A stretch of DNA of 64,000 nucleotides from an uncultured Rhodoferax sp. (GTDB taxonomy: Bacteria > Pseudomonadota > Gammaproteobacteria > Burkholderiales > Burkholderiaceae_C). The first letter of the stretch is position 1. Each line of letters begins with the position of its first letter. Below, one piece after another: positions 14,830 through 42,835 of the stretch. Under the pieces are notes generated by a model. It saw only the letters and a program-made list of their open reading frames with translations, did not search any database and was not told the DNA's origin. The DNA lies in assembly GCA_964538895.1 (NCBI GenBank), contig CAZIGL010000002.1, positions 141,931 to 205,930 on the forward strand, in the 5' to 3' direction. The position numbers were made by a program, and so were the translations under genes.

Positions 14830-14950
14830 GAAACGCGTCTCCTGGGGCATCTACGTAAGAAAACCTGAACCGGCTGGTGATGCCTGTTTCAGATGCCAAT
14901 CTGGTGAATTTTTAAACAACAGCGCAGCTTGATTGGCTACATGAGAAATA

Positions 14951-15048
14951 GGTGACGAGCCTGACCCCGGCACTGGCTCCACAGTTAGGGCTGCTTGGTT
15001 CCCCACCTGACCCGGTTGGCCGCTTTACCATGCGGGAAGGCCCGTCGA
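14951..15048 (-). ncRNA. ffs: signal recognition particle RNA (4.5S, small bacterial type)
   Basis: Minus strand reads ...CCCGCAUGGUAAAGCGGCCAACCGGGUCAGGUGGGGAACCAAGCAGCCCUAACUGUGGAGCCAGUGCCGGGGUCAGGCUCGUC. This aligns with the E. coli 4.5S domain IV (GGUCAGGUCCGGAAGGAAGCAGCC). The GGAA tetraloop is kept, with a compensatory CC/GG to GG/CC swap. The termini GACGGGCCU and AGGCUCGUC pair. Ends are good to about 5 nt. Confidence 0.85.
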
Positions 15049-15064
15049 GTGGAATTGTAAAGCC

Positions 15065-15403
15065 TTAAGCCTCGGTCAGATCTTTGGTGGGGGCTTGCGG
15101 CGCGTTGCTCTTGACGGACGCAATGCCGTTGTCGCGGGCTGCTTCAGTGGTGTACATCTCGCTGCGGCCAATCACCTGGCCGTTGCCGGCCTTCAGGCTG
15201 AAATAAGGCTGGCCCGACGTGGACTCGGCACGCACGAAACGCTCGTCCATGACGGCGTTGGTTTTGCATGATTCAATGCCCTGGGTGGCGGCGGCTTTGG
15301 CTTCGTACATCTGGCTGGTCAGAATCACCTGGCCATTGCCCGCTTTCAGGTTGAACATGAATTTTCCGTTTGTTGATTTGCTGAGTTCAAATTTACCAGC
15401 CAT
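15065..15403 (-). CDS. YegP-family (DUF1508 tandem) protein
   Basis: ORF 15065..15520. ATG 15403 gives MAGKFELSKSTNGKFMFNLKAGNGQVILTSQMY... with a second repeat FSLKAGNGQVIGRSEMY. Confidence 0.8.
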   Translation of the reverse strand: MAGKFELSKSTNGKFMFNLKAGNGQVILTSQMYEAKAAATQGIESCKTNAVMDERFVRAESTSGQPYFSLKAGNGQVIGRSEMYTTEAARDNGIASVKSNAPQAPTKDLTEA

Positions 15404-15513
15404 GATTTTTTCCTTCAGGGGTGTCAAATGGGTTGAAAGCGCCGGGCGGGTATTTGACAAAACCTCCCGGCAAAATAACTTTACCGTTTTTTTTGGGCAT
15501 TTAGAATCAGGAA

Positions 15514-17391
15514 ATGTCATATCTAGTGCTCGCCCGTAAATACCGCCCCCGAAATTTTACTGAAATGGTGGGCCAGGACCACGTGGTGCAAGCCCTGACC
15601 AATGCGCTCACCACCCAGCGCCTGCACCATGCCTATCTGTTTACCGGCACGCGCGGCGTCGGCAAGACCACGGTGTCGCGTATTTTGGCCAAGTCGCTCA
15701 ACTGTCAGGGCGCCGACGGGCAGGGCGGCATCACTGCCACGCCTTGTGGGGTTTGCCAGGCCTGCGCAGACATCGACAGCGGCCGTTTTGTTGACTACAC
15801 CGAGCTTGATGCCGCCTCCAATCGTGGCGTGGACGAGGTCCAGGCGCTGCTGGAGCAGGCGGTGTACAAGCCGGTGCAGGGCCGCTTCAAGGTGTTCATG
15901 ATCGACGAGGTTCACATGCTCACCAACACGGCGTTCAACGCCATGCTCAAAACGCTGGAAGAGCCGCCGGAGTATTTGAAGTTTGTGCTTGCCACCACCG
16001 ACCCGCAGAAAGTGCCGGTCACGGTGTTGTCGCGCTGCCTGCAGTTCAATTTGCGGCCCATGGCGCCGGACACCATCCGCGAGCATCTGCAAAAAGTGCT
16101 GCTGACCGAGCAGGTGCAGGCCGACCTGCCGTCCCTGCGCTTGCTGGCGCGCGCCGCGCGCGGCTCCATGCGTGATGCTTTGAGCCTGACCGACCAGGCC
16201 ATTGCCTTTGGCTCAGGTGCTTTGCAGGAAGCCACGGTGCGCCAGATGCTGGGCAGTGTGGATCGCTCCTACGTGTTCCAACTGCTGCAGGCGCTGGCCC
16301 AGGGCGACGGCAAAACGGTGGTCGAGACCTCAGAAGTGTTGCGCACGCATGGCCTGAGCGCGGCCTCCACGCTGGAAGAAATGAGCGGCGTGTTGCAACG
16401 CATGGCGGTGTTGCAGGCCGTGCCCGACAGCGCCCAGGACGACAACGACCCCGAGTTTGCCGAGATCGCGCAACTGGCCGCGCTGATGCCGGCCGATGAA
16501 ACCCAGTTGCTCTACAGCATCTGTCTACACGGCCGGGGTGAACTGGGGTTGGCGCCTGATGAATACGCCGCGCTCACCATGGTGCTGCTGCGCCTGCTGG
16601 CGTTCAAGCCTGCGGCGGCCGATACGGCCACTGGGGAAAAAAAAACACTGAAAATTCCCCCGCGCCCCAGCGCTGAGCCATCGGCTCACGCGCCGAAAAT
16701 TTCGCCAGCGCCAGCGCCAGCACCTGTGAATGCTCCGCTTGTCGCGCCCGTGCCGGCGATAACGCCGGTCACCAACGCGGTGCCCCAGGGGCAGCGACTG
16801 CCGGTACGCGACATGCCGCGCCCGCAAACCCCAAGCCCCGCGCCCGAGCCGACAACTGCACCGGCTGCGGTCCAGGTCTTGCCAGACAGGCCGCCGCAGG
16901 CAGCAAAAATTGAAGCCGTTCAGGTGCACGAGCAGCCAGACCCCCGGCGCGATGTGCCGCTGGAGCGCGCGGCAGCTGCGGTGCCTGGCAGCCCAGACGG
17001 TGATTTCTGGTATGCCACGGTGCAGACTCTGGTTGCCTCGGAGGCCATCACAGCCATGGTGCGCGAGCTGGCCTTGCAGGCACAACTGGTGGCGCGTGAC
17101 AGCGACCAATGGTTGCTGCGTGTTGAGCGCGAGTCGCTCAACCAGCCGGGCAGCCGGGAACGCCTGGCGGCGGCCCTTGCCACGGCGGGTTATCCGGTCA
17201 GCCTGGTGGCAGAGGTAGGGCGTGTGACCGACAGTCCGGCCAAGCGCAATGCGGCAGCTGCAGCACAAGCCCAGCTGGCGGCTGAAAAAATCGTGTTTGA
17301 TGATCCGCTGGTGCAATCGCTGATGCGTGATTTTGGGGCGAAAATCGTGCCTGGCAGTATCAAGCCGGGTGAAGTCCGTTCACCTCCCTGA
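15514..17391 (+). CDS. dnaX: DNA polymerase III subunit tau (and possibly gamma)
   Basis: MSYLVLARKYRPRNF...GTRGVGKTT with a Zn module CGVCQAC, a Pro/Ala linker and a tau C-terminal domain. Confidence 0.97.
   Translation: MSYLVLARKYRPRNFTEMVGQDHVVQALTNALTTQRLHHAYLFTGTRGVGKTTVSRILAKSLNCQGADGQGGITATPCGVCQACADIDSGRFVDYTELDAASNRGVDEVQALLEQAVYKPVQGRFKVFMIDEVHMLTNTAFNAMLKTLEEPPEYLKFVLATTDPQKVPVTVLSRCLQFNLRPMAPDTIREHLQKVLLTEQVQADLPSLRLLARAARGSMRDALSLTDQAIAFGSGALQEATVRQMLGSVDRSYVFQLLQALAQGDGKTVVETSEVLRTHGLSAASTLEEMSGVLQRMAVLQAVPDSAQDDNDPEFAEIAQLAALMPADETQLLYSICLHGRGELGLAPDEYAALTMVLLRLLAFKPAAADTATGEKKTLKIPPRPSAEPSAHAPKISPAPAPAPVNAPLVAPVPAITPVTNAVPQGQRLPVRDMPRPQTPSPAPEPTTAPAAVQVLPDRPPQAAKIEAVQVHEQPDPRRDVPLERAAAAVPGSPDGDFWYATVQTLVASEAITAMVRELALQAQLVARDSDQWLLRVERESLNQPGSRERLAAALATAGYPVSLVAEVGRVTDSPAKRNAAAAAQAQLAAEKIVFDDPLVQSLMRDFGAKIVPGSIKPGEVRSPP
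16637..16645 (+). other. A9 homopolymer inside dnaX (candidate slippage/recoding site)
   Basis: GGG GAA AAA AAA ACA in frame 0. The -1 frame stops at 16674-16676 and the +1 frame stops at 16649-16651. Confidence 0.45.
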
Positions 17392-29227: not shown

Positions 29228-29312
29228 GGGGGGGCGGGCGGTCCGGGAATCAGAAAAACATGCGTTACGCTGCAGGCCTTGACCCGCGCTGCAGCGCAAC
29301 GCCCCACCCGCG

Positions 29313-29522
29313 TTATTTGGTCACTTCGTGGCCAATCACGCCACCCACGGCGGCGCCGGCGGCTGTGCCCAACAGGCCGCCACCCAAGACGTTGCCGGCA
29401 ACACCGCCAATGGCAGCACCGGTGGCCGTGCCCTTTTCCTGGTATGTCATGCCGGCGCAGCCGCCCAGACCCAGGGCGGTCAACAAAAGTACGGCGGCAG
29501 AAATGCGTTGGGTAAAGTTCAT
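29313..29522 (-). CDS. glycine-zipper small lipoprotein (OsmB-like)
   Basis: MNFTQRISAAVLLLTALGLGGC... followed by GAAIGGVAGNVLGGGLLGTAAGAAVGGVIG. Confidence 0.8.
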   Translation of the reverse strand: MNFTQRISAAVLLLTALGLGGCAGMTYQEKGTATGAAIGGVAGNVLGGGLLGTAAGAAVGGVIGHEVTK

Positions 29523-29745
29523 GAGAATTCTCCATTCGGTTAAAGATCAAGCCGTGCAACGCAGCGCTTGCTGGCACGGAGGAGCTTGCATTGTTGAATC
29601 CCAGCGGCGCCCGGTCTGTGCGCTTGCGTACACACGCCGGCGCGACTTCGTGCTTGAATCGCCGGCATGGGTCGACCAACGCGTGTATAAGGACAGTTCA
29701 CCCCTATGGCATCTGGTCAGTTCTGCATCACAAGTCCCCCCCATT

Positions 29746-32700
29746 TTGAAAATTATTCCCAAGACATTGACCTGGCTCGCCGTTGCGTTGCTTTTGGTAA
29801 CGGGGGGCATCGCGTTCATGTTCTGGTCTTACCAGCAAATCTCGGACGCCGCCCTGCAGCGCCAGAACACCCGCATCGTTTTCGGCATGGCCAACGACCT
29901 GCTGTCTGGCTTGAAAGACGCCGACACCGGGCAGCGGGGCTACGCCCTGACGGGCAACGAGACCTACCTGAAGCCGTACCTGGCGGCGCGTGACCAAGTC
30001 ATTCCCGCTCTGTTGGCCTTGCGCAAAGAAGTTGGTAACGCCGATGCCCGGGCCATCCTGGACACCCTGGCGCCCCTGATCGAAGCCAAAATGGTCGACC
30101 TCGCCGCTGGCGTTGCCCTGACCCGTGCCGGTGACCAGAACGCCGTCCGATTGCCGATGGAAGGCGGCAGGGGCGAGCAGCTGATGGGCAATATCCGCAA
30201 CGGGATGGACAGCTTCATCCTGGCGCAGGCCACTGACCGCTTGCGCAACGAGGCCAGTTTTGACGCCGCCATGCGTCGCTTGCTGCTCATCTTGTTCGTG
30301 GTGGCCGCGCTGGCACTGCTGATTGCCTTGAATTTTGCCTATTTGATCTATCAAAAGTCACAGCAGCAGGTGAAGAGCCTGGTGCACCTGGAGACCCTGC
30401 ATTTGCTGCAGGCGCAGGAAACCAGCAACACCCTGCTGGCACAAGCCAACCACCGCTTGCAGGAAGGCGAGCAGCGGCTCTGGGTGACACTCAATTCGAT
30501 TGGCGATGGCGTCATCACCACCGATGCCGCCGCGTGTATCACGCTGCTGAATCCGGTGGCTGAAGCGCTGACCGGCTGGACGCAGGCGCAGGCGCTTGGC
30601 AAACCTATTGATGAAATATTTCATATCCTTACCAAGGACACCCGCACCCTGGCCCAGATTCCCGTGGCAGCGGCACTGGCCCACGGCACGGTGCAGGACC
30701 TGGCCAACCACACGGTGCTGATCTCCCGCGACGGGCGCGAGTTTGACATTGCCGACAGCTGCGCCCCGATTCGTGCCTTTGACGGCCTGGTGGTGGGGGC
30801 GGTGCTGGTGTTTCGCAATATTTCCGACGAATACGCGGCACAACAGGCCTTGCGCGACAGTGCTGCGCTGTTGCAAACCATTCTCAACACGGTGGCCGAT
30901 GGCCTGGTCACCATCCATGCCCAAGGCGGCATCATCGAGACCGTGAATCCGGCCATCGCGCACATGTTTGGCTACAGCGCGGCCGACCTCGGTGGCAAGC
31001 ATCTGAGTCTGCTGATTCCTGAACTGGACCGCGACCACCACAGCGGCTCGCTGGCCTATTACGGCGTCAGCGACGAGGACAGTGCCAACGGTGTAGGTCG
31101 CGAAGTGATTGGCCGGCGCATGAATGGCAGCACCTTTCCGCTGGAAATCGCCGTGCGCGAGATGACGCTGCGCGGCCAGCGCTACTTCACCGGTATTTTT
31201 CGCGACATCAGCGCGCGCAAACAGGCTGAAGAAGTGCGGCGCAAGGACGGCGCCCTGCAAAAAGCGATTTTTGACAGCGCGGTGTTCGCCAGTGTCGCCA
31301 CGGACGCCAAGGGCGTGATCCAGATTTTCAATGTGGGCGCCGAGCGCATGCTGGGCTACACCGCCGCAGAAGTGATGAACAAGATCACCCCGGCTGACAT
31401 TTCAGATCCACAAGAGATCATCGTGCGGGCCAAGTCCCTGAGCATCGAGCTCGAGACCAGCATCAGACCCGGGTTCGATGCCCTGGTGTTCAAGGCCTCG
31501 CGCGGTATTGAAGACATTTACGAGCTCACCTACATCCGCAAGGACGGCAGCCGTTTTCCGGCGGTGGTGTCTGTGACCGCGCTGCGCGATGCCCAGGAAC
31601 GCATCATTGGTTACTTGCTGATTGGCACCGACAACACGGTGCGCAAGCAGGTCGAGGCCGAGCGGGCACGGCTCGACCTGGTGCTGCAAAACAAGAACGT
31701 TGAACTGGAGCGCGCGCGCCGTCTGGCCGACCATGCGAATCAGGCCAAGTCAGACTTTTTGTCGAGCATGAGCCACGAACTGCGCTCGCCGCTGAACGCC
31801 ATTTTGGGCTTTGCCCAGTTGCTGCAGTCGGGCACGCCGCCACCGTCTGATACGCAAGCTGCCAGCATTGGTCAAATTCTCACGGCCGGTTGGTACCTGC
31901 TGGATCTGATCAACGAAATACTTGACCTGGCCCTGATCGAGTCCGGGCGCTTGTCGCTGTCGCTGGAGCCCACCTCGCTGCAGGACGTGCTGCAGGATTG
32001 CCAGGCCATGATTGCACCGCAAGCCGAGCAAAAGGGCATCCAGACCCAATTTCCACTCGTGGATGGCGACTGTTTTGTCAACGCCGACCGGACCCGACTC
32101 AAGCAGGTGCTGGTCAATTTGCTGTCGAACGCCATCAAATACAACCACCCCGGCGGTTTGGCCGAGGTGAGCTTTGCTCAGCACGCGGGGGGCCTTTTGC
32201 GTATCAGTGTGCGCGACAGTGGCGAAGGGCTGTCGGCCCAGAAGATTTCGCAATTGTTCCAGCCCTTCAACCGCCTGGGCCAGGAGTCGGGGGCCGAGGA
32301 GGGCACCGGCATCGGTCTGGTGGTGAGTCGCCGCCTGGTGGAGTTGATGGGGGGCCAAATCGGTGTCTCCAGCACGGTGGGTGTGGGCAGTGTCTTTTGG
32401 TTTGAGCTCAAGACCTCGCAACTACCCCGGCTGGTGCTTGATGAACTGCAGCCACTGGCCGGGCCGGTCACCCTGGCGCCAACAGGTGTGGCGGTGCGCA
32501 CCCTGCTCTATGTGGAAGACGATCAGGCCAACATGGCGCTGGTAGAGCAGCTCATTGCGCGCCGCCCGGACATGCGCCTGCTGGGCGCGCAAGATGCCAT
32601 GCGCGGAATTGCCTTGGCGCGGGCACACCATCCCGATGTGATTTTGATGGACATCAACCTGCCCGGCATCAGTGGCATGCAGGCGCTGGCCATCTTGCGT

Positions 32701-32889
32701 GAAGACACCGCGACCCGGCATATTCCGGTGTTGGCACTGAGCGCCAACGCCATGGCGCTTGACGTAGACAAAGGCCTGGCAGCCGGCTTTTTTTGCTACC
32801 TCACCAAGCCGATCCGGGTGCCGGAGTTCATGGCCGCGCTCGACAAAGGTCTTGCGCTGGCCGAAGTCCAGAGGCAACAGCCTTGTTAG
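29746..32889 (+). CDS. hybrid sensor histidine kinase: TM-CHASE3-TM, PAS x3, HisKA, HATPase_c, receiver
   Basis: ORF 29260..32889. Start is uncertain: in-frame TTG at 29746 lies just before the first TM helix (KIIPKTLTWLAVALLLV). CHASE3 motif GQRGYALTGNETYLKPY, H-box SHELRSPLN, G-box GTGIGL, REC DINLPGISG. Confidence 0.85.
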   Translation: MKIIPKTLTWLAVALLLVTGGIAFMFWSYQQISDAALQRQNTRIVFGMANDLLSGLKDADTGQRGYALTGNETYLKPYLAARDQVIPALLALRKEVGNADARAILDTLAPLIEAKMVDLAAGVALTRAGDQNAVRLPMEGGRGEQLMGNIRNGMDSFILAQATDRLRNEASFDAAMRRLLLILFVVAALALLIALNFAYLIYQKSQQQVKSLVHLETLHLLQAQETSNTLLAQANHRLQEGEQRLWVTLNSIGDGVITTDAAACITLLNPVAEALTGWTQAQALGKPIDEIFHILTKDTRTLAQIPVAAALAHGTVQDLANHTVLISRDGREFDIADSCAPIRAFDGLVVGAVLVFRNISDEYAAQQALRDSAALLQTILNTVADGLVTIHAQGGIIETVNPAIAHMFGYSAADLGGKHLSLLIPELDRDHHSGSLAYYGVSDEDSANGVGREVIGRRMNGSTFPLEIAVREMTLRGQRYFTGIFRDISARKQAEEVRRKDGALQKAIFDSAVFASVATDAKGVIQIFNVGAERMLGYTAAEVMNKITPADISDPQEIIVRAKSLSIELETSIRPGFDALVFKASRGIEDIYELTYIRKDGSRFPAVVSVTALRDAQERIIGYLLIGTDNTVRKQVEAERARLDLVLQNKNVELERARRLADHANQAKSDFLSSMSHELRSPLNAILGFAQLLQSGTPPPSDTQAASIGQILTAGWYLLDLINEILDLALIESGRLSLSLEPTSLQDVLQDCQAMIAPQAEQKGIQTQFPLVDGDCFVNADRTRLKQVLVNLLSNAIKYNHPGGLAEVSFAQHAGGLLRISVRDSGEGLSAQKISQLFQPFNRLGQESGAEEGTGIGLVVSRRLVELMGGQIGVSSTVGVGSVFWFELKTSQLPRLVLDELQPLAGPVTLAPTGVAVRTLLYVEDDQANMALVEQLIARRPDMRLLGAQDAMRGIALARAHHPDVILMDINLPGISGMQALAILREDTATRHIPVLALSANAMALDVDKGLAAGFFCYLTKPIRVPEFMAALDKGLALAEVQRQQPC

Positions 32890-32962: not shown

Positions 32963-35900
32963 ATGGCCACGCGCCCAAAAATCAAAGCCAAAGAGACCCT
33001 CAATGCTGTCAGCGCAGAGCCAGTGGTGGGGGTCCCACGTTTTCCGGTCATCGGCATCGGCGCGTCGGCGGGTGGCCTGGCCGCCATTGAGGCGTTTTTC
33101 TCGGGCATGCCAAACGATGTTGATCCCGCCATGGCCTTTGTGCTGGTACAACACCTGGACCCCGACCACAAAAGCCTGCTCGCCGAGTTGATCCAGCGGC
33201 GCACCCGCATGCAGGTGTTTGAAGTGGTTGATGGCATGGTGGTGCAGGCCAACTGCGTCTACATCATTCCACCCAACCGGGACATGGCTTTTCTCAGTGG
33301 CACGCTGCAGTTGCTGGAGCCCGCCGCACCGCGCGGGCACCGTTTGCCGATTGATTTTTTGTTTGCGTCGCTGGCCGCTGACCAGCAGGAGCGCGCCATT
33401 GGGGTGGTGCTGTCGGGCACCGGCAGCGACGGCACCCAGGGAGTGCGCACCATCAAGGCCGAGGGTGGCATGGTGATGGTGCAAAGCCCGACTTCGGCTG
33501 AATTTGACGGCATGCCGCGAAGCGCACTGGCCACCGGCCTGGTGGACTTTGAGCTGCCGCCAGCCGAAATGGCGGCGCAGCTGATGGCTTATGTGGCCCA
33601 CGCCCTGGGCCGACCACCGCACCCTGCCAGTGCGCTGACGGCGCTGGGCGGGAATGTTTTGAAAAAAATATTTGTCTTGCTGCGCGCCCAGACCGGACAC
33701 GACTTTTCGCAGTACAAGCCCAGCACCATTCACCGCCGCATCGAGCGGCGCATGGCGGTGCACCAGATTGACTCGATGGTGGGCTATGTCAAATACTTGC
33801 AGCAAACCCCGGTGGAAGTGCAAGCCTTGTTCAATGACCTGTTGATTGGTGTCACCAACTTTTTCCGCGACCCCGACGCCTTTGCTGCGCTGGAGGAAAA
33901 GGTCATCCCCAAGCTGTTCGAGGGCAAAGCCGTGGGTGGCGCCGTGCGCATCTGGTGCACCGGTTGCTCAACCGGTGAAGAAGCTTATTCGATGGCCATC
34001 CTGCTGCAGGAGCGGCTTGAATTGCTCAAGGCCAGCTACAAGGTGCAGGTGTTTGCCACCGACATCGACAGCCGCGCCATTGCCGTGGCCCGCGCAGGTG
34101 TTTATCCGGCCAGCATTGCCGAGCACGTGTCGCCAGAGCGCCTGGCAAGATTTTTTACGCTTGAGCCCGACGGCAGCGCCTACCGGATCCACAAAGGCAT
34201 TCGTGACCTGCTGGTGTTTTCGGTACAAGACGTCATCAAGGACCCGCCGTTCTCCAGGCTCGACCTGGTCAGTTGCCGCAACCTGCTGATTTACCTTGGC
34301 GCAGAGTTGCAAAAAAAATTGATCACGCTGTTTCACTACGCCCTGCAGCCCGGTGGCATGCTGTTTCTGGGCTCCTCCGAGTCTGCCGGCGAGCAAGGCG
34401 ACCTGTTTGCCGTGCTGGAGCGCAAATCCAAAATTTACCAGCGCAAGGAAGACTTTCAGGGCGCCCAGCGCGCCGCCCTGGGCCGATTTTTGCCACCTTT
34501 GATGGACCGAGCCATGTCACCCTCACCCGCCACCGAAAAAGAACCCCACCTGGCCAAAATTTCCTTGCGTGAGCTCACCGAGCAAGCCCTGTTGCAGCAA
34601 CTCGCGCTGGTCGCGGCGCTGGTCAACAGCCAGGGCGAGATTCTTTACCTGCATGGGCGCGCCGGCATGTACCTGGAACCCACGCCGGGTGAAGCCAGCA
34701 TCAACAATATTTTGAAAATGGCGCGTGAAGGCCTGCGCCGTGATCTCACGGTGAGCTTGCACAAAGCCGCCGCCAGCCACGAGATCGTGCGCACGCCGGG
34801 TTTGCGTGTCAAGACCAACGGCCACTTCACGCAGGTTGATTTGAGCGTTTGCCCGGTGTTGGGCGGCCCGACGGCAGCGCTGGCGTCGCCCTTGTTTTTG
34901 GTGACGCTGACACAAGCGCCCGAGAGCGACAGCGCCACCGTGTCGGCGCCGTCGCTCCTGCCGGTTATCAGCGCCGCTGCCGGCAGCGACCAACTGCACT
35001 CGGACGCGCGTGCCCATATTGCCGAACTTCAGGACGAACTTTTGGCCAAGGAAGAGTACCTGCGCGCCATCAACGAAGAGCTTGAAACCACCAACGACGA
35101 ACTCAAATCAAGCAACGAAGAAATGCAGTCGGTCAACGAAGAGCTGCAAAGCACCAATGAGGAGCTGGAAACCTCCAAGGAAGAAATGCAGTCGATCAAC
35201 GAGGAGCTCAGCACCGTCAACACCGAGTTGCAAACCAAGGTGGGCGATTTGTCACGTGCCAACAACGATATGAACAACCTGCTGGCGGGCACCGGCATTG
35301 CCACCATTTTTGTCGACTACAGCTTGCGCATCCTGCGCTTTACCCCGTCTGCCAGCCAGATCATCAACCTGATTGCCAGCGACGTGGGCCGCCCGGTGGC
35401 CCACATTGTGAGCAACCTGGTGGGCTACACCAGCCTGTTGGCAGACGTGCAGGAGGTGCTCAAGACCCTGATTCCGAGAGAGGCCGAGGTGCAAACCGTC
35501 GATGGCAAGAGCTACACCCTGCGTATCCTGCCCTATCGCACGCTGGACAACGTGATTGAGGGCGCCGTGGTGACCTTTGTCGATGTGACCGAGGTCCGGC
35601 GAACCCGTGAGGCGCTGCAAAAGGTCAACGCGCTGTTGCGCCTTGCGGTGGTGGTGCGCGACGCGCACGATGCCATCACCGTGCAGGCGCTGGACGGCCG
35701 CACCATTGCCTGGAACCCGGGTGCCGAACAGCTGTACGGCTGGTCTGAGGCCGAGGCCTTGCAACTCAATGTGAGCGACCGTATTCCCAAGGTGCTGCAG
35801 CCTATCGCGTTGAATCAGGTGCGCCAACTCAGCCAGGCGCAGACGCTGGCCCCCTTCAAGACCCAGCGCCTGACCAAGGACGGTCGCTGTCTCGATGTGT

Positions 35901-36010
35901 TGATGACCGCGACAGCTTTGCTCGATGAGACTGGCAAGGTGGACGCCGTTGCCACCACCGAGCGTGCCAGCGACGCCGAGACGGCACCAGATGGAGCGCC
36001 ACCACCATGA
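32963..36010 (+). CDS. CheB-CheR fusion protein with heptad coiled coil and C-terminal PAS domains
   Basis: AGGAGA RBS. CheB-like esterase motifs are GIGASAGG, LVQHLDPDH and SGTGSDG. CheR-like SAM methyltransferase motifs are FFRDP, IWCTGCSTGEEAYS and VSCRNLLIY. These are followed by eight heptads and two PAS-like domains. Confidence 0.9.
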   Translation: MATRPKIKAKETLNAVSAEPVVGVPRFPVIGIGASAGGLAAIEAFFSGMPNDVDPAMAFVLVQHLDPDHKSLLAELIQRRTRMQVFEVVDGMVVQANCVYIIPPNRDMAFLSGTLQLLEPAAPRGHRLPIDFLFASLAADQQERAIGVVLSGTGSDGTQGVRTIKAEGGMVMVQSPTSAEFDGMPRSALATGLVDFELPPAEMAAQLMAYVAHALGRPPHPASALTALGGNVLKKIFVLLRAQTGHDFSQYKPSTIHRRIERRMAVHQIDSMVGYVKYLQQTPVEVQALFNDLLIGVTNFFRDPDAFAALEEKVIPKLFEGKAVGGAVRIWCTGCSTGEEAYSMAILLQERLELLKASYKVQVFATDIDSRAIAVARAGVYPASIAEHVSPERLARFFTLEPDGSAYRIHKGIRDLLVFSVQDVIKDPPFSRLDLVSCRNLLIYLGAELQKKLITLFHYALQPGGMLFLGSSESAGEQGDLFAVLERKSKIYQRKEDFQGAQRAALGRFLPPLMDRAMSPSPATEKEPHLAKISLRELTEQALLQQLALVAALVNSQGEILYLHGRAGMYLEPTPGEASINNILKMAREGLRRDLTVSLHKAAASHEIVRTPGLRVKTNGHFTQVDLSVCPVLGGPTAALASPLFLVTLTQAPESDSATVSAPSLLPVISAAAGSDQLHSDARAHIAELQDELLAKEEYLRAINEELETTNDELKSSNEEMQSVNEELQSTNEELETSKEEMQSINEELSTVNTELQTKVGDLSRANNDMNNLLAGTGIATIFVDYSLRILRFTPSASQIINLIASDVGRPVAHIVSNLVGYTSLLADVQEVLKTLIPREAEVQTVDGKSYTLRILPYRTLDNVIEGAVVTFVDVTEVRRTREALQKVNALLRLAVVVRDAHDAITVQALDGRTIAWNPGAEQLYGWSEAEALQLNVSDRIPKVLQPIALNQVRQLSQAQTLAPFKTQRLTKDGRCLDVLMTATALLDETGKVDAVATTERASDAETAPDGAPPP
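35072..35239 (+). repeat. eight consecutive 21-bp (heptad) coding repeats inside the CheB-CheR fusion gene
   Basis: NEELETT NDELKSS NEEMQSV NEELQST NEELETS KEEMQSI NEELSTV NTELQTK, read directly. Confidence 0.9.
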
Positions 36011-37689
36011 GCCAGGAGCCTTTGACCACCGAGCAGCTGATGCACGACCTGCAGGTGCATCAGGTGGAGCTGCAACTGCAAAACGAGGAGTTGCGACGCG
36101 CGCAGTTGGCACTCGAGGTGTCGCACGCGCGCTATTTTGACCTCTATGACCTGGCGCCCGTGGGTTACCTCACGGTGGCGCCCAGTGGCCTGATTGTGGA
36201 AGCCAACCTGAGTGCCGCCACGCTGCTGGGTATTGCCCGCAGTGCCTTGGTCAAGCGGACCCTGAGCCGTTTCATTGTCAAGGACCATCAGGATACCTAC
36301 TACCAATGCCGTCGGCTATTGCTGGAAACCGGGCAATCGCAAAATTGCGAGCTGCAGGTCTTGCAAGGCGATGGTCTCATGCGGTGGGTCAGGGTGATTG
36401 TGAGTGCGGTTCAGGGGGATTCTGAGAAGCCCGCGCTGCGCGTCATCCTGACCGATATCTCCGAGCGCAAGCACCTGGATGAGGCTTTGCGGGAGACCAA
36501 TAAAAACCTGGAACTGGCCCGTACGCAGGCTGACCGTGCCAACCTGGCCAAATCCGAGTTTTTGTCGAGCATGAGTCACGAACTGCGCTCGCCCTTGAAT
36601 GCCGTTCTGGGTTTTGCGCAACTCATGGAGTCGGGCGCGCCGCCGCCCACCCCGAGCCAGCAGGCCAGCCTGGATCAGATTCTGAAAGGTGGCTGGTATT
36701 TGCTGACCCTGATCAATGACATTCTGGACCTGGCCTCGATTGAGTCCGGCCATGCGACCCTGACCATGGAAGCCGTGACGTTGAGCACCGTGCTGCAAGA
36801 TTGCCAGACCCTGATCGAGCCCTTGACGATAAGCCGCTCAGTGCAGGTCAGTTTTCCGGAATTGCCTGCCACCTGCCGTGTGCAGGCTGACCCGACCCGG
36901 CTCAAGCAGGTGCTCATCAACCTGTTGTCCAACGCCATCAAGTACAACCGGCCGCAGGGGACGGTAGAGGTGAGTTGTGAGAGCCCGGCAGCGGGTCGTT
37001 TGCGCATCTGCGTGCGCGACACTGGCCTGGGTTTGTCCGCGCAAAAACTCGCCAAACTGTTTCAGCCATTCAACCGGCTGGGTCAGGAAATGGGGGGTAC
37101 CAAAGGCACTGGCATCGGCCTGGTGGTGAGTCAGCGGCTGGTGCAGTCCATGGGCGGTGAGATGGGGGTGGACAGCAGGGAAGGCGAGGGCAGCCTGTTC
37201 TGGTTCGAGTTGGCGCTTGCTGACGCTGAATCGGTTTGCGCGAGTTGCGTCCTTGCGACCACGCAGCCTGTGCCCGTGCCGACGCTTGCGCCGCTCGATC
37301 CGGTGCGGCGCACGGTGCTTTACGTGGAAGACAATCCGGACAACATCGCGCTGGTGGCACAGTTGCTGGCCGAGCGCCCGGGCCTGCGCCTGGTGGGCGC
37401 ACCAGACGCCATGCGTGGCATGGCCATGGCGCGCGACCTGGCGCCAGACGTCATGGTGCTGGACATCAACCTGCCCGACATCAACGGCTATGAGGTGCTC
37501 CAGCTTTTGCAGTCCGACCCGGTCACCCGGCACATCCCGGTGCTGGCGCTGAGCGCCAATGCCATGCCGCGCGACGTTGACAAGGGTCTGGCCGCCGGCT
37601 TTTACCGCTACGTTACCAAGCCGATCAAGGTCGACGAATTTTTACAGGCGCTCGACGAGGGCCTGGCCCTGGCTGGAAAACGGGTCTGA
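36007..37689 (+). CDS. hybrid sensor histidine kinase: coiled coil, PAS, HisKA, HATPase_c, receiver
   Basis: The ATG overlaps the cheBR-fusion stop (ATGA). The kinase core and REC are about two-thirds identical by eye to those of the 29746..32889 kinase. Confidence 0.9.
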   Translation: MSQEPLTTEQLMHDLQVHQVELQLQNEELRRAQLALEVSHARYFDLYDLAPVGYLTVAPSGLIVEANLSAATLLGIARSALVKRTLSRFIVKDHQDTYYQCRRLLLETGQSQNCELQVLQGDGLMRWVRVIVSAVQGDSEKPALRVILTDISERKHLDEALRETNKNLELARTQADRANLAKSEFLSSMSHELRSPLNAVLGFAQLMESGAPPPTPSQQASLDQILKGGWYLLTLINDILDLASIESGHATLTMEAVTLSTVLQDCQTLIEPLTISRSVQVSFPELPATCRVQADPTRLKQVLINLLSNAIKYNRPQGTVEVSCESPAAGRLRICVRDTGLGLSAQKLAKLFQPFNRLGQEMGGTKGTGIGLVVSQRLVQSMGGEMGVDSREGEGSLFWFELALADAESVCASCVLATTQPVPVPTLAPLDPVRRTVLYVEDNPDNIALVAQLLAERPGLRLVGAPDAMRGMAMARDLAPDVMVLDINLPDINGYEVLQLLQSDPVTRHIPVLALSANAMPRDVDKGLAAGFYRYVTKPIKVDEFLQALDEGLALAGKRV

Positions 37690-37690
37690 G

Positions 37691-38050
37691 TTATTTCGTC
37701 TCGTCAATCATCTGCGACATCTTTTCTTCGACCTCTTGCGCCACTGACGCCAACGAGGTGTCTTGAGACAAAGCGGACAGCATCGGCACCGGCCTGATCA
37801 TGCCGATCCGGGTAACACCTTTTTCGGTGAACACCGAAATGCGACACGGCAAGGCCATGTTCAGCAGCATGTCGAGGGACAAAACCTTCGCCGCCTGTGC
37901 CGGATTGCAGACCTCGAACACCTTGCACTCCTCCTCGAACGCAATGTCCTTGCTGACGTCCAGGGTAAAGCGGTTGTTCGCGGTGTCGAGCGTCAGTGCT
38001 GTCCATGGCACCGCAAAAAGCTTTCGCAAGGTGAATCTGGCAAGCGGCAA
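37691..38050 (-). CDS. DUF302-domain protein, N-terminus uncertain or truncated
   Basis: The C-terminal 90 aa (FEEECKVFEVCNPAQAAKVLSLDMLLNMALPCRISVFTEKGVTRIGMIRP...) look like DUF302. There is no ATG; a TTG at 38050 is possible. Upstream the frame is antisense to the EAL fragment. Confidence 0.5.
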   Translation of the reverse strand: MPLARFTLRKLFAVPWTALTLDTANNRFTLDVSKDIAFEEECKVFEVCNPAQAAKVLSLDMLLNMALPCRISVFTEKGVTRIGMIRPVPMLSALSQDTSLASVAQEVEEKMSQMIDETK

Positions 38051-38051
38051 A

Positions 38052-38324
38052 ATGACCAGCGCCGAGGCGCTGCTTCGATGGAACGATCCGCGCACCGGGC
38101 TGGTGCCGCCGGGCCGCTTCATCCCGATCCTGGAACAAACCGGCCTGATCCACGAGGTGGGCCGTTGGGCGCTGCGCCAGGCCGTCATGGACTACCTGGG
38201 CTGGCGTGCGGCGGGCCTGCCGGTGGTGCGCATTGCCGTCAATGTGTCGCCACTGCAATTGCGCGACCGTGGATTTATTGAGGAGGTGAGAAACGCCATC
38301 AGCCTGGACGCGCCGGTTTCTTAA
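38052..38324 (+). pseudogene. EAL-domain (c-di-GMP phosphodiesterase) fragment, about 90 aa of roughly 250
   Basis: MTSAEALLRWNDPRTGLVPPGRFIPILEQTGLIHEVGRWALRQA...RIAVNVSPLQL carries the EAL motif and the conserved N. It stops before the ExxE, DDFGTG and EGVE motifs, and there is no upstream sensor or GGDEF part. Confidence 0.75.
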
Positions 38325-38501: not shown

Positions 38502-38580
38502 CTCCGCCGGGAGGTCTGTGCGCCAACGAACCCAAGCCCTTCGGCACTCGCCCTACACTGGTTTCTACCGAGGTTTACCC

Positions 38581-39219
38581 ATGAAACACAAAGATGGCAC
38601 TGGAAATTTCCCGATCGTTTGCGTCGGTGGTTCGGCAGGCGGGCTTGACGCCTACATCCGCTTGCTGAAATGCCTGCCCGCCGACATGGGGGTGGCGATT
38701 GTGATCGTCAACCACATCACGCTCTTTCCCACGCAGCTGCACGAGGTGCTGCCACCCTTTACCCCCATGCCGGTCGAACTGATTACTGAAAACCTGGTGA
38801 TCGAGCCCAACCACGTGTTCATCATCCCAGCCAACCGGGATTTGCATGTGGAGGACGGCGTGTTTCATCTGAAGCCGATCTCCAAACCGCGCGGTTGGCC
38901 CGATGTGATCACGGTCTTTTTGAAGTCGCTCACCATGTACTGGGACGGCAAGCTGATTGCCGTGATTGTGTCGGGGTATGACGGCGACGGCGCGGCTGCG
39001 CTGTGCGGCATCAAGGAGGCGGGAGGCATCACGCTGGCGCAAAAGCTCAGCACCGCCATCCAGCCCGACATGCCCGAGAGTGCCATTGACACCGGTTGCA
39101 TCGACTTTGTGCTGTCACCCGAAGACATTGCCCAGGAAATTGTGCGCATTGCACAGCGCGAAGACATGGCGGTGACCCATGCCAGCATGGTCCAGCGACC
39201 CCATCCCCAAAGAAAGTAA
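38581..39219 (+). CDS. stand-alone CheB-type methylesterase/deamidase catalytic domain (no receiver)
   Basis: ORF 38518..39219, ATG 38581. Triad contexts are VGGSAGG (Ser), IVNHITLF (His) and SGYDGDGAAAL (Asp). It resembles the N-terminal domain of the 32963 fusion protein. Confidence 0.85.
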   Translation: MKHKDGTGNFPIVCVGGSAGGLDAYIRLLKCLPADMGVAIVIVNHITLFPTQLHEVLPPFTPMPVELITENLVIEPNHVFIIPANRDLHVEDGVFHLKPISKPRGWPDVITVFLKSLTMYWDGKLIAVIVSGYDGDGAAALCGIKEAGGITLAQKLSTAIQPDMPESAIDTGCIDFVLSPEDIAQEIVRIAQREDMAVTHASMVQRPHPQRK

Positions 39220-39381: not shown

Positions 39382-41814
39382 TCAACGCCCGCGCTTGCGC
39401 CTTGGCTTGGGGTGGTCCGCCAGATGGCAGGCGCGGCGGTAGGTTTGCAGGGTTTTCTGGGCGCGACCCAGCACCGTATCTGGCGCGTAGCCGCTGGCGG
39501 TGCCAGGCAAGCCGCTGGCAATGCCGGTCAGCAATTCAATGCCTTCGCTCACATGCTCGGCCGTGTACACGTGAAACCGGCCTTGTGCCACGGCTTGCGT
39601 CACCTGCTGGCTCAGCATCAGGTGGCGCCGGTTGCGCTGCGGGATCAACACACCTTGCTCACCATTGAGCCCGGCCTGTTCGCAGATGCGGTAAAAACCC
39701 TCTATTTTTTCGTTGAGGCCGCCCACCGGCAGCACCTCGCCGTGCTGGTTCACCGCGCCGGTCACCGCAATGCCCTGCTTGAGCGGCAGCCCCGACAGGC
39801 ACGACAGCAGCGCATACAACTCGGCACACGAGGCCGAGTCGCCCTCGATGCCGTGGTATTCCTGCTCAAACACCAGTGTGGCGTCCAGCGCCAGGGGTGC
39901 CTGGGCGGCAAAGAGCGTGGACAAATAGCTGTGCAAAATGAGCACGCCCTTGTCGTGGATCGGGCCTGACAGCGCCACTTCGCGCTCCACGTTCACCAGG
40001 CCGTCTTCGCCAGCCGAGGTGCGCGCCGTGACCCGCACCGGGAACCCAAAACGGTAGTCGCCCAGGTCGATCTGGGTCAGGCCGTTGATCTGGCCGGCTT
40101 TCTCGCCTTGCAGGCTGATCAGGCGCTCACCGTCGGTAATGGTTTCCTGCAGCCGCTGGTCGGGGTAGTTGTGGCGCAGCCGGCGCGCCTCCAGCGCGTT
40201 GCCCACATCATCGGCGTCCACTTTTGCGCCGCTGCGGGCATGGCACACCGCTGCTGCTTCCATCACCAGCGCCTCCATGCGGGCAAAGGCGGCGCTTTGG
40301 CGCGTCTGGTCGTCGACCTCGCGGTGCGCGTCTTCCAGCAAGCGCGCCACCGCTGCGGCCGTGAAATGCGGCAGGCCCAGGCGCTGGCAGGCGTGCGCCA
40401 CAAACACGGCGGACGCCGCATAGGTCTGCGCACTGGCGGCAAAGCTTTCGGCAAAGTCCACCTTGACGCGAAAGCGCCGGGCAAACTCGGGGTCGGCGTC
40501 TTGCAGCAGGTAATACTCTTCGGTGGCGCCAATCAGCACGATCTTGACGCTGATGTCAAGCGCCTCGGGGGTCAGCGACACCGTGGCCATGGGGGCAAAC
40601 ATCTGCATCGGCTCTTCAATTTGCAGGCGCCCGGTGCGCGAAAAGCGGCGCAACTTTTCCCACACCAGCTCGTCGGTCAGCAGCTCGCGCACGTGCAGCA
40701 TCAAATAACCGCCATGCGCCTTGAGCAGGCTGCCCGCCCGGATGCGCGAGAAATCGGTGAGCAGCACGTCTTCTTCGGCCTGGTACTCGACGCTGCCAAA
40801 CAGGCTGTGGTACGAGGGGTTGTCTTCAATCACCACGGGCGCGCCGTTCAAGGCCTCGTTGTCCACCACCAGGTTCACCCGGTAGCGCGCCAGCATGGTG
40901 GCCAGTTCCTCCTGGCGCAACTCTTCGTCCAGCCCGGCGCTGGCATCGGCTGTGCGGAAGGCCTCCAGGTTGTCCAGCACGTCTGTGGTCACCTGGTCAA
41001 AGTACTTGCCCAGCTTGACCGAGTCCTTGATTTGTTTCTTCAGGTCCATCCGGATTTCCTGCAATTCGTGTTCCAGCAGCGGCTTGATGGTCTGGCGCCG
41101 CAGCGCGGCCAGCCCCTCGTTTTTGAGGCGCTCGATGGGCCGCACCTTGTCCAGGTAGCGCGCAATCTCAGAACGCAGCTCCTGCTCGGCCACCTCCACC
41201 TGGGCGCGTTGCTCCTTGGGCAGCGAGCGCGCTTCGGTTTCGGTCAGGGCGTTGCCCGTGGCGCCCAGCAGGGTAAAGATCAGGTGGCCGTCTTCGCGGT
41301 ACAGGGCAAAGTTGCGCGCCTCGGCAAACGCGTCAAGCTCGGCATAGGCGCCAGCTTCTTCCAGCTTGCAGGTTTTTTCCAGGTGGGCGCATTCGGCCTT
41401 GAAGTCGGGCCCGTCAAGGCGTTGCGGAATCTCTTTTTGCAGCGTTTTGCACAGCTGTGCCATGTGCTGGCGCAGCTGCCGACCCTGCCCAGGCGGCATG
41501 CGCAGCGCGCGTGGCCGCTCTGGTGTGTCAAAGTTGTGCAGGTAGCACAGGTCGGGCGGTACCGCCCTGGTGGCAGCCACTTCGCGCATCAGCTGCGCCA
41601 GCAGCGACGAGCGGCCACTGCCGACCTCGCCCAGCACAAACAGGTTGTAGTCGGGCTGCGCCATGGCCAGCCCAAAACGTGCCGCCGTCTCGGCCCGCGC
41701 CTGGCCGATCCAGGGCAGCGGCTGCTGCAGCAGTTCGGAAGTGTCGCCAAAGTCCAGCGTGTCTGGGGCAATGCGCAGGGCAAGCGCGCCGGGGTCCAGG
41801 TGGCAAAGGGTCAT
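39382..41814 (-). CDS. Lon-like ATP-dependent protease (COG1067 type: AAA+ with insertion domain plus Lon S16 C-terminal domain)
   Basis: ORF 39382..42018. ATG 41814 gives MTLCHLDPGAL... Walker A GEVGSGRSS and protease motif IEGDSASCAELYALLS. Confidence 0.85.
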   Translation of the reverse strand: MTLCHLDPGALALRIAPDTLDFGDTSELLQQPLPWIGQARAETAARFGLAMAQPDYNLFVLGEVGSGRSSLLAQLMREVAATRAVPPDLCYLHNFDTPERPRALRMPPGQGRQLRQHMAQLCKTLQKEIPQRLDGPDFKAECAHLEKTCKLEEAGAYAELDAFAEARNFALYREDGHLIFTLLGATGNALTETEARSLPKEQRAQVEVAEQELRSEIARYLDKVRPIERLKNEGLAALRRQTIKPLLEHELQEIRMDLKKQIKDSVKLGKYFDQVTTDVLDNLEAFRTADASAGLDEELRQEELATMLARYRVNLVVDNEALNGAPVVIEDNPSYHSLFGSVEYQAEEDVLLTDFSRIRAGSLLKAHGGYLMLHVRELLTDELVWEKLRRFSRTGRLQIEEPMQMFAPMATVSLTPEALDISVKIVLIGATEEYYLLQDADPEFARRFRVKVDFAESFAASAQTYAASAVFVAHACQRLGLPHFTAAAVARLLEDAHREVDDQTRQSAAFARMEALVMEAAAVCHARSGAKVDADDVGNALEARRLRHNYPDQRLQETITDGERLISLQGEKAGQINGLTQIDLGDYRFGFPVRVTARTSAGEDGLVNVEREVALSGPIHDKGVLILHSYLSTLFAAQAPLALDATLVFEQEYHGIEGDSASCAELYALLSCLSGLPLKQGIAVTGAVNQHGEVLPVGGLNEKIEGFYRICEQAGLNGEQGVLIPQRNRRHLMLSQQVTQAVAQGRFHVYTAEHVSEGIELLTGIASGLPGTASGYAPDTVLGRAQKTLQTYRRACHLADHPKPRRKRGR

Positions 41815-42010
41815 GGTCTTGCTCCGGGTGGTGTGACGGCCAGTTTTTACTTGATTTACAAACCATGCCTTGACATCGCGCATGCTTGTATCAAGTTGTT
41901 GATCGCGTTGCTTATGTGTGGTGGCGCACTGACCAGCGCGGGCCGCTTGGCGCACCATGGCCACTTCGAAAATACTGTTCCAATCGCAGTCAGACAACCA
42001 GGAATAGACC

Positions 42011-42835
42011 ATGCCCATGACGCTCGAAATTCATCAGGCCAGCATTCTGATCGTTGACGATCAGCCGGCCAACGTGCAGTTGCTGGAGCAGTTGCTGGCC
42101 GATGCCGGTTACACGCAGGTGACATCCACCATGAAACCCGAAGAGGTGTGCGCGCTGCACCGCAAAAACAGTTACGACCTGATCCTGCTCGACCTGCAAA
42201 TGCCGGTCATGGACGGGTTTCAGGTGATGGAAGGGCTCAAGACCAACGTTGCCGACGATTACCTGCCGGTGATCGTGCTGACGGCCCAACCGGGCCACAA
42301 GCTGCGCGCGTTGGCGGTCGGGGCCAAAGACTTCATCAGCAAGCCGTTTGACCTGGTCGAGGTCAAGACACGCATCCACAACATGCTCGAAGTGCGCTTG
42401 CTGTACCGCAAGCTGGCCGACTACAACAAAGAGCTGGAAGCCGCAGTGGCCGAGCGCACGGCCGAACTGCGCGAAAGCGAGGCGCGCTACCGCAGCCTGA
42501 CCGAATTGGCCTCGGACTGGTACTGGGAGCAGGATGAAAGCGGCCAGTTCAGCAAGGTGTCCGGGCCGGTGCTGGAAATGCTGGGCATTCAGGTGGCGCC
42601 GCTCAGTGGCGAACCAGGCAAGGCCCAGGTCAGCGGCTGGAACGAGGATGAGCGCACCAAGCTGCGCGGCATCATTGCCAACCGCCAGCCCTTTCTTGAC
42701 TTTGTGTTTCATCGTGCCAATGCCGATGGCAGCAAACAAAGCTTTCAGGTCAGCGGCGAGCCCATGTTCAACAGCAACAGCCGTTTCATCGGCTACCGAG
42801 GCATCGGGGTGGAGCTGACCTCGAAATTCAACTAA
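42011..42835 (+). CDS. response regulator: receiver plus coiled coil plus PAS, no recognisable output domain
   Basis: ILIVDDQPANVQLL...DLILLDLQMPVMDG...SKPF, then ERTAELRESEARYRSLTELASDWYWEQD. Confidence 0.88.
   Translation: MPMTLEIHQASILIVDDQPANVQLLEQLLADAGYTQVTSTMKPEEVCALHRKNSYDLILLDLQMPVMDGFQVMEGLKTNVADDYLPVIVLTAQPGHKLRALAVGAKDFISKPFDLVEVKTRIHNMLEVRLLYRKLADYNKELEAAVAERTAELRESEARYRSLTELASDWYWEQDESGQFSKVSGPVLEMLGIQVAPLSGEPGKAQVSGWNEDERTKLRGIIANRQPFLDFVFHRANADGSKQSFQVSGEPMFNSNSRFIGYRGIGVELTSKFN

Follow-up and report, generated by a model that had tools for sequence, protein, structure and literature searches.

The question raised by the locus considered here is whether a bacterial sensor can carry within one polypeptide both the enzymes of receptor methylation and the helix that they modify. 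The locus lies in a stretch of 64,000 nucleotides (64 kb; hereafter the window) from an uncultured Rhodoferax sp. (assembly GCA_964538895.1, contig CAZIGL010000002.1, positions 141,931 to 205,930), and its central gene encodes a fusion of a CheB methylesterase with a CheR methyltransferase, in which eight successive heptads, six of them bearing a Glu-Glu pair, form part of a predicted coiled coil (hereafter the coil). An earlier note on this DNA had likened these heptads to the methylation sites of MCPs (methyl-accepting chemotaxis proteins) and had proposed that the fusion protein methylates and demethylates its own coil and in this way tunes the neighbouring kinases. Based on the results presented below, we lean slightly towards the view that the coil of this sensor, which is very likely of the MAC1 type (MAC, methyl-accepting coiled-coil), is methylated by the tethered CheR and demethylated by the tethered CheB, and that it tunes the partner kinase encoded by the next gene.

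The heptad repeat itself is real and far beyond chance. The peptide reported in the earlier note for positions 35072-35239 matches exactly residues 704-759 of the fusion protein, which read NEELETT NDELKSS NEEMQSV NEELQST NEELETS KEEMQSI NEELSTV NTELQTK and follow the pattern [N/K]-x-E-[L/M]-x-x-x eight times. The Glu-Glu pairs occupy one and the same heptad position in six of the eight heptads (viz. 1, 3, 4, 5, 6 and 7), as had been claimed, and because heptads 2 and 8 read DE and TE at this place, the second Glu is present in all eight; these second Glu residues (706, 713, 720, 727, 734, 741, 748 and 755) are the candidate methylation sites. Not one of 5000 shuffles of the whole protein reached six in-phase pairs (the highest number was 3), nor did any of 20,000 in which the Glu-rich helix alone was shuffled (highest number 5). 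The 21-bp period of the DNA, which had also been pointed out, is recovered by Tandem Repeats Finder (35069-35236, + strand) together with a stronger period of 63 with 79% matches, and the self-identity of the DNA reaches 0.59 for a lag of 21 and 0.70 for one of 63, as against 0.22-0.36 at other multiples of 3. The 63-bp (three-heptad) super-period suggests an ancestral unit of 21 residues, of the form NEEL-x-T/S-T, NEEL-K/E-S-S, N/K-EEMQS-V/I. The 56 residues of the repeat include 17 acidic and 3 basic ones, which gives a net charge of -14, and the only hydrophobic heptad positions are that of Leu/Met and, partly, that of the residue three places later. Two registers are possible for such a sequence, one with Asn/Lys at a, Glu-Glu at b and c and Leu/Met at d, and the other with Leu at a, Ser/Thr/Val at d and Glu-Glu at f and g. 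In both of them the Glu pairs stand outside the a/d core, and on this ground the concern that they might be buried core residues, which the earlier note had named as damaging to its proposal, does not apply. The polar a-layer together with the charge density suggests a marginally stable coil, whose packing would be expected to respond strongly to the neutralisation of charge.

An exhaustive HMMER search with the coil plus the PAS_10 domain that follows it as the query recovered 17,724 representative clusters, 6661 of them with expectation values (E) of 1e-30 or lower. In a set of 130 diverse coil segments, the conservation of the Glu-Glu pairs across homologs, which the earlier note had made a check of its proposal, is borne out, as these pairs are conserved to 96-100% in heptads 3-7 and to 83-93% in heptads 1-2; positions e (Gln/Glu) and f (Ser/Thr) are about 95-98% conserved, and position g alone is variable. 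A scan of loci, with one genome per species, gave at least 586 loci, and the locus counts reported in this work rest on the best 80 of them. These 80 loci are from Beta-, Gamma-, Delta-, Epsilon- and Alphaproteobacteria, Acidobacteriota, Verrucomicrobiota, Bacteroidota, Chloroflexi, Firmicutes, Planctomycetes and Methanosarcina/Methanolobus, and the coil family spans more than 10 phyla, archaea included. The mean column entropy, computed over 72 full-length homologs with 37-70% identity to the query, is 0.69 bits for the eight heptads and 0.44 bits for heptads 3-7, compared with 1.33 bits for CheB, 1.39 for CheR, 1.46 for PAS_10 and 2.41 for the PAS-like domain that precedes the coil. The coil is the best-conserved part of the fusion protein, with the reservation that the conservation figures are somewhat inflated, because both sets of homologs were collected by queries or patterns that include the coil. 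Its anchor-to-anchor length is 67 in 189 of 202 sequences (94%) and 53, 60 or 74 in the rest, and therefore it varies by whole heptads only. We conclude that the coil is a real, functional and strongly constrained feature. The presence of Gln at the Glu positions was also considered as a signature of deamidation by CheB; it is seen in at most 3% of the sequences and is uninformative in this respect. In four homologs (P0153, P0193, P0196 and P0221) the coil is matched once more, and more weakly, some 230-290 residues downstream of the first match, which hints at repeated coil-PAS units.

The protein in which the coil is found is 100% identical to a database protein (P0001), and its closest relatives are from Rhodoferax, with the annotation 'two-component system CheB/CheR fusion protein'. 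Its CheB domain matches the PDB structures 1CHD, 1A2O and 6YMZ by both sequence and fold, and 3SFT also by fold, and the residues S35, H64 and D156, which by their motifs, with 1CHD as the reference, we take to be the catalytic triad, are 96-99% conserved in the 72 homologs. Canonical CheB has a receiver domain; Pfam finds none in the CheB part of the fusion, which is therefore a catalytic-domain-only CheB. The CheR part aligns to 1AF7, 1BC5 and 5XLY (1AF7 and 5XLY were also matched in the fold search), it retains motifs such as CSTGEE and CRNLLIY, and across 37 diverse homologs the basic residues R258, R259, R262 and R263 of its N-terminal helix show little or no variation. The residues R53, R56 and R57 of Salmonella CheR, which align here, reportedly belong to the surface by which the acidic methylation helix is recognised. 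Judged from the sequence, both the CheB and the CheR domains look active.

The Pfam scan finds no specific family in residues 489-769, and the PAS-like domain within this region is without a Pfam match. This domain is present in every full-length homolog, and in the fold search it matches tandem-PAS sensors. The earlier note had placed the coil directly between the CheR-like domain and the PAS domains, and here a correction is needed, because CheR ends at residue 488 and both the PAS-like domain and a variable linker (residues 652-681) intervene before the helix begins; the coil joins the PAS-like domain to PAS_10. The long helix that contains the repeat matches generic coiled-coil Pfam families only, and in the AlphaFold2 model, which is of a monomer and is based on a 38-sequence alignment, its pLDDT (predicted local distance difference test) values are about 79-85 over residues 690-750; the mean pLDDT of the model is 62 and its pTM (predicted template modelling) score is 0.30, and therefore its local features alone are usable. 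A generic S-helix linker was considered for this helix. The S-helix is a coiled coil of about 40-50 residues that connects sensor to output domains and has a central ERT-type signature, and this assignment is ruled out by the 96-residue length of the helix, by its lack of an ERT motif and by the conservation of its surface positions beyond what a linker needs. The non-enzymatic part of the protein as a whole is best matched, in the fold search, by tandem-PAS sensors with helical linkers, viz. Brucella LOV-HK, FixL, PpsR and DosP, and no HisKA or HATPase domain is detected by Pfam in the 1015 residues.

Wuichet and Zhulin (2010) reportedly gave the methyl-accepting coiled-coil proteins their name and distinguished a MAC1 type that incorporates CheB and CheR. 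The fusion protein has CheB and CheR in one polypeptide with a receptor-like region, and its coiled coil has receptor-like, heptad-spaced Glu pairs; it resembles MAC1 proteins in being a cytoplasmic sensor that combines PAS domains and a receptor-like coiled coil with CheB and CheR of its own, and in being linked to histidine-kinase signalling instead of CheA/CheW. It very likely belongs to the MAC1-type CheB-CheR family. To judge from secondary accounts of it, the published MAC1 hypothesis covers a self-methylating coil, and the idea put forward in the earlier note was therefore already known, having been in print since 2010. Profiles for MAC1 and MAC2 were added in MiST 3.0 (PMC6943060). As of 2022 the MAC proteins had never been characterised experimentally (10.1101/2022.05.07.491037), and methylation of the coil is therefore plausible and unproven; the same source notes that some proteome clusters have MAC components and apparently no other chemotaxis system.

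The coil and the two enzymes are closely linked. In the 80 loci, the coil-PAS_10 segment, CheB, CheR and the PAS-like domain share one open reading frame (ORF) wherever the contig permits this to be checked; two of the fusions are split by frameshifts, and two have a kinase fused in (L013 and L048). When a profile of CheB-CheR only was used for the search, every match that reaches the coil region was found to have the coil, these matches being fairly close relatives, and the top matches were mostly fragments that are frameshifted or lie at contig ends. Five proteins appeared to have coil-PAS_10 without CheB-CheR. One of these is cut by a contig end, three result from frameshift splits within the PAS-like domain, and one, P0213 (L081, 1042-2388), is genuine; all of its Glu-Glu pairs are intact, it is preceded by a kinase-receiver gene, and it may be MAC2-like. 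The C-terminal half of P0213 resembles an out-of-frame translation. Many database entries for this family are likewise frameshifted fragments (P0271-P0390; L082, L083 and L084), with tails such as TRNWPPSTPNCKPR that represent the coil out of frame, and frameshift splits of this kind, some of them inside the PAS-like domain, give rise to false 'CheB-CheR only' and 'coil-PAS only' proteins.

The other component of the proposal is the partner kinase, whose gene overlaps the end of the fusion gene by ATGA and is translationally coupled to it. This kinase carries, ahead of its PAS domain, a helix with a single NEEL heptad in which the polar-a (Gln/Asn) and Leu-d pattern of the coil is repeated. 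In the long ORFs of the window, the motif N-[EDQ]-[EQ]-[LM] is found six times in the coil, once in the partner helix and at one unrelated site. In 27 of the 80 related loci the fusion gene is directly followed by a kinase gene, and a NEEL-bearing N-terminal helix is present in the product of the gene directly downstream in 36 of the 73 loci that have enough downstream sequence (L001, L004-L006, L009, L011, L014, L015, L017 and about 27 more). The NEEL-helix motif is present in 20 of the 27 immediately downstream kinases and in 4 of the 22 kinases that are located elsewhere in these loci (Fisher p = 1.5e-4). The partner helix may pair with the coil, be a second substrate or just mark a cognate PAS partner. 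Neither the conserved gene pair nor the partner motif was found in the literature searched.

If the coil is indeed modified in the manner suggested, the sequence of events could be as follows. Two chains would pair in parallel as a coiled coil, in the manner of other tandem-PAS sensors, and the Asn layers plus charge repulsion would keep this coil only marginally stable. The tethered CheR, using S-adenosylmethionine, would methylate the second Glu of the pairs and the tethered CheB would strip the methyl groups, either in cis or across the dimer. The neutralisation of charge would then tighten or re-register the coil, and the altered coil would change the output of the PAS_10 and PAS domains and, through it, how active the translationally coupled kinase is. 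In this way a two-component pathway would acquire an adaptation memory based on methylation, without MCP, CheA or CheW. That the coil is methylated by its own enzymes is plausible, with chances that are roughly even to slightly better. We regard as distinctly unlikely a wider reading, in which the coil that the tethered enzymes methylate and demethylate is an Asn-zippered pair of parallel strands unlike the MCP-type bundle, the NEEL heptad of the partner may be a further target, and ordinary two-component kinases of many bacterial and archaeal lineages, non-motile ones among them, gain a memory of this kind.

The likeness of the coil to the methylation helices of Tar and Tsr has two sides. In both cases an acidic helix bears Glu-Glu pairs at intervals of seven residues, with small or hydroxyl residues after them, the second Glu is invariant, the length shifts by whole heptads, and CheR and CheB are the presumed writers and erasers; the register of the Glu pairs also coincides with that of the sites in Tar/Tsr when +1/+5 are counted as the core. 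However, the fusion protein has one unbroken helix of 96 residues between PAS domains, whereas the MCPs have an antiparallel hairpin with a tip that binds CheA/CheW; its coil has Asn at nearly every a position, Ser/Thr in place of the consensus Ala and almost no Gln-encoded sites; and its enzymes are covalently tethered, whereas in MCPs the tether is a C-terminal pentapeptide. The methylation-site consensus of E. coli has Ala at +3 (PMC1079850). A search of PDB by sequence found no MCP and no solved coil-PAS_10 structure, and no MCP hairpin-tip motif is present in any frame of the window.

Several results weigh against self-methylation of the coil or against the family assignment on which it draws. 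The MCPsignal profile (PF00015) gives 16.2 bits on the coil alone (E 0.0099), where the cut-off is 34.6, it takes the 18th place in a list of generic coiled-coil families, and it has no match in the whole-protein scan. The AlphaFold2 monomer shows no MCP-type hairpin or four-helix bundle, residues 682-777 being one unbroken helix, and the top 50 fold matches include no MCP structure. None of the eight heptads fits the strict E. coli consensus, and when Ala/Ser/Thr/Gly are all allowed in place of Ala, the fit extends to 3 of 8 in this protein and to 4 of 8 in the consensus of the family. Heptads 1, 4 and 5 do agree with EE-x-x-[AST]-[ST], as the earlier note had it, and what stands of its comparison with MCP sites is the motif, the heptad spacing and the register, while MCPsignal homology, the hairpin and Glu/Gln alternation are missing. 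Unlike in MCP sites, Gln replaces Glu in no more than 3% of the 130 coil segments. The family assignment was made by matching the protein to two secondary descriptions; MAC proteins are described as having the kinase function in the same protein (10.1101/2022.05.07.491037), whereas here the kinase is encoded by a separate gene (ATGA overlap at 36007) and is fused only in some relatives, e.g. L013 and L048. The literature searched on CheB-CheR fusions, on MAC1/MAC2 and on the peptide strings yielded neither experimental work nor a paper in which the motif is quoted, and the inflation of the conservation figures mentioned above also counts on this side. Taken together, the coil is outside the MCP family, and its function may well be like that of an MCP methylation helix.

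The main rival explanation is a specialised signalling coil, with the enzymes acting on another substrate. According to it, the coil is a mere dimerising and signal-transmitting linker between PAS domains, and CheB and CheR act on MCPs or on the NEEL helix of the partner, a possibility that we consider somewhat unlikely. The tandem-PAS sensors matched by fold, viz. Brucella LOV-HK (6PPS/6PH4), FixL (8JS5), PpsR (4HH2) and DosP, have the same PAS-helix-PAS arrangement, and the missing MCPsignal homology and hairpin, the weak fit to the consensus and the lack of Glu/Gln alternation are all in keeping with such a linker, as are the frequent occurrence of a NEEL-helix gene directly downstream (36 of 73 loci) and the retention of all Glu-Glu pairs in P0213, which is without CheB-CheR. 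However, in these tandem-PAS sensors the linkers are much shorter or without Asn-Glu-Glu-Leu heptads, and none of them is fused to CheB or CheR. A plain linker would also need neither 95-100% identity at positions b, c, e and f across phyla nor a conservation above that of the catalytic domains, and it would not be expected nearly always in the same chain as CheB-CheR. As for the substrate, the partner helix fits the methylation consensus even less well than the coil, because it has Arg at +3. Further, the family is present in Bacteroidota, Verrucomicrobiota and Acidobacteriota, many members of which are not known to have flagellar chemotaxis. The proteomes that have MAC components but apparently no other chemotaxis system (10.1101/2022.05.07.491037) argue in the same direction. 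The CheR-TPR fusions (FrzF-like, PMC3447774), in which CheR is similarly fused to a protein-interaction module in non-flagellar pathways, differ in that they act on separate MCP-like receptors in CheA-based systems, and they are without CheB, PAS domains or a candidate acceptor helix of their own.

It could also be that the acidic coil is never modified and serves as a docking or pseudo-substrate surface for the basic helix of its own CheR (for autoinhibition or localisation), or that it forms a hetero-coil with the partner helix. The invariance of the basic CheR_N residues, the net charge of -14 and the repetition of the polar-a, Leu-d pattern in the partner helix would all suit this explanation; however, the catalytic residues are kept in both enzymes, which implies a real substrate, and a pseudo-substrate needs neither eight near-identical sites nor a length quantised in heptads, and we consider it to be very improbable. 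An origin of the repeat by chance low complexity or by a recent tandem expansion, with no function, would account for the 63-bp super-period with its 79% matches, but the observed pattern is never reached in shuffles, the peptide is nearly invariant from Proteobacteria to Methanosarcina and its length is the same in 94% of sequences; this explanation is refuted by the conservation and retains practically no probability. Self-methylation of the coil by the tethered enzymes is thus the reading with which we proceed, and the features on which it is based, along with others in the surroundings, are listed in Table 1.

Table 1. Coordinates in the window of the fusion gene, its domains and neighbouring features.
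Feature	Positions	Strand	Basis
CheB-CheR fusion sensor gene, very likely MAC1-type, 1015 amino acids, without own kinase	32963..36010	+	ORF, translation, Pfam
CheB methylesterase catalytic domain, residues 30-207	33050..33583	+	PF01339, E 2e-57
CheR methyltransferase: CheR_N residues 233-281, SAM-binding (S-adenosylmethionine-binding) domain residues 297-488	33659..34426	+	PF03705 57 bits, PF01739 172 bits
PAS-like domain, residues ~535-651	34565..34915	+	AlphaFold2: alpha/beta topology with a helix and five strands
Single continuous helix, residues 682-777 (96 residues), predicted coiled coil, from PAS-like domain to PAS_10	35006..35293	+	AlphaFold2
Eight-heptad candidate methyl-accepting segment, residues 704-759	35072..35239	+	Translation of ORF 32963..36010
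PAS_10 domain, residues 770-876	35270..35590	+	PF13596, E 6e-30
C-terminal PAS domain, residues 894-998	35642..35956	+	PF08448, PF00989, PF13426
PAS-HisKA-HATPase-REC hybrid kinase, translationally coupled partner (ATGA overlap)	36007..37689	+	ORF, Pfam
N-terminal helix of partner kinase with single NEEL heptad, before PAS domain	36031..36135	+	Translation, motif scan
CHASE3-PAS(x3)-HisKA-HATPase-REC hybrid kinase, 73 nucleotides upstream of fusion gene	29260..32889	+	ORF, Pfam
Stand-alone second CheB-like catalytic domain, 233 amino acids, without receiver	38518..39219	+	PF01339, E 2e-42

Some other features of this gene neighbourhood are also of interest. In the ORF of the kinase upstream of the fusion gene, the first ~140 residues (29260-29700, + strand) are rich in Pro, Ala and Arg and are unlike coding sequence, and the true start of this kinase is probably located downstream of 29260, before the CHASE3 domain. 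The stand-alone CheB-like protein shows 32% identity to the CheB of the fusion and retains the GGSAGG, NH and DGDG motifs, and similar stand-alone CheB ORFs are found near the fusion gene in at least seven other loci, viz. L015 (13247-13942), L029, L045, L063, L064, L067 and L072. Between the partner kinase and this gene, two ORFs on opposite strands overlap, 37691-38188 (-) and 37800-38324 (+), with matches to DUF302 (E 1e-12) and to part of EAL (profile positions 21-109 of 236, E 2e-21); either one of this pair is spurious or the EAL match is a gene remnant. A gene for a Lon-like AAA protease (39382-42018, - strand) is also present near the cluster, and in L083 a receiver-AAA-Lon gene (14940-16955, - strand) is near the fusion; this proximity of Lon-type genes may be coincidental.

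In terms of its significance, reversible methylation of glutamate is the textbook memory device of bacterial chemotaxis, and to our knowledge it has been shown on MCP-type receptors only. The hypothesis that MAC1 proteins are methylated dates from 2010, and it remains a worthwhile experimental question, for which the present work is of practical value in providing defined candidate sites, a register and a partner kinase for a reconstituted assay. If the coil of this very large family is methylated, the reach of methylation-based adaptation would be widened to include ordinary two-component signalling as well as organisms that are without chemotaxis machinery.

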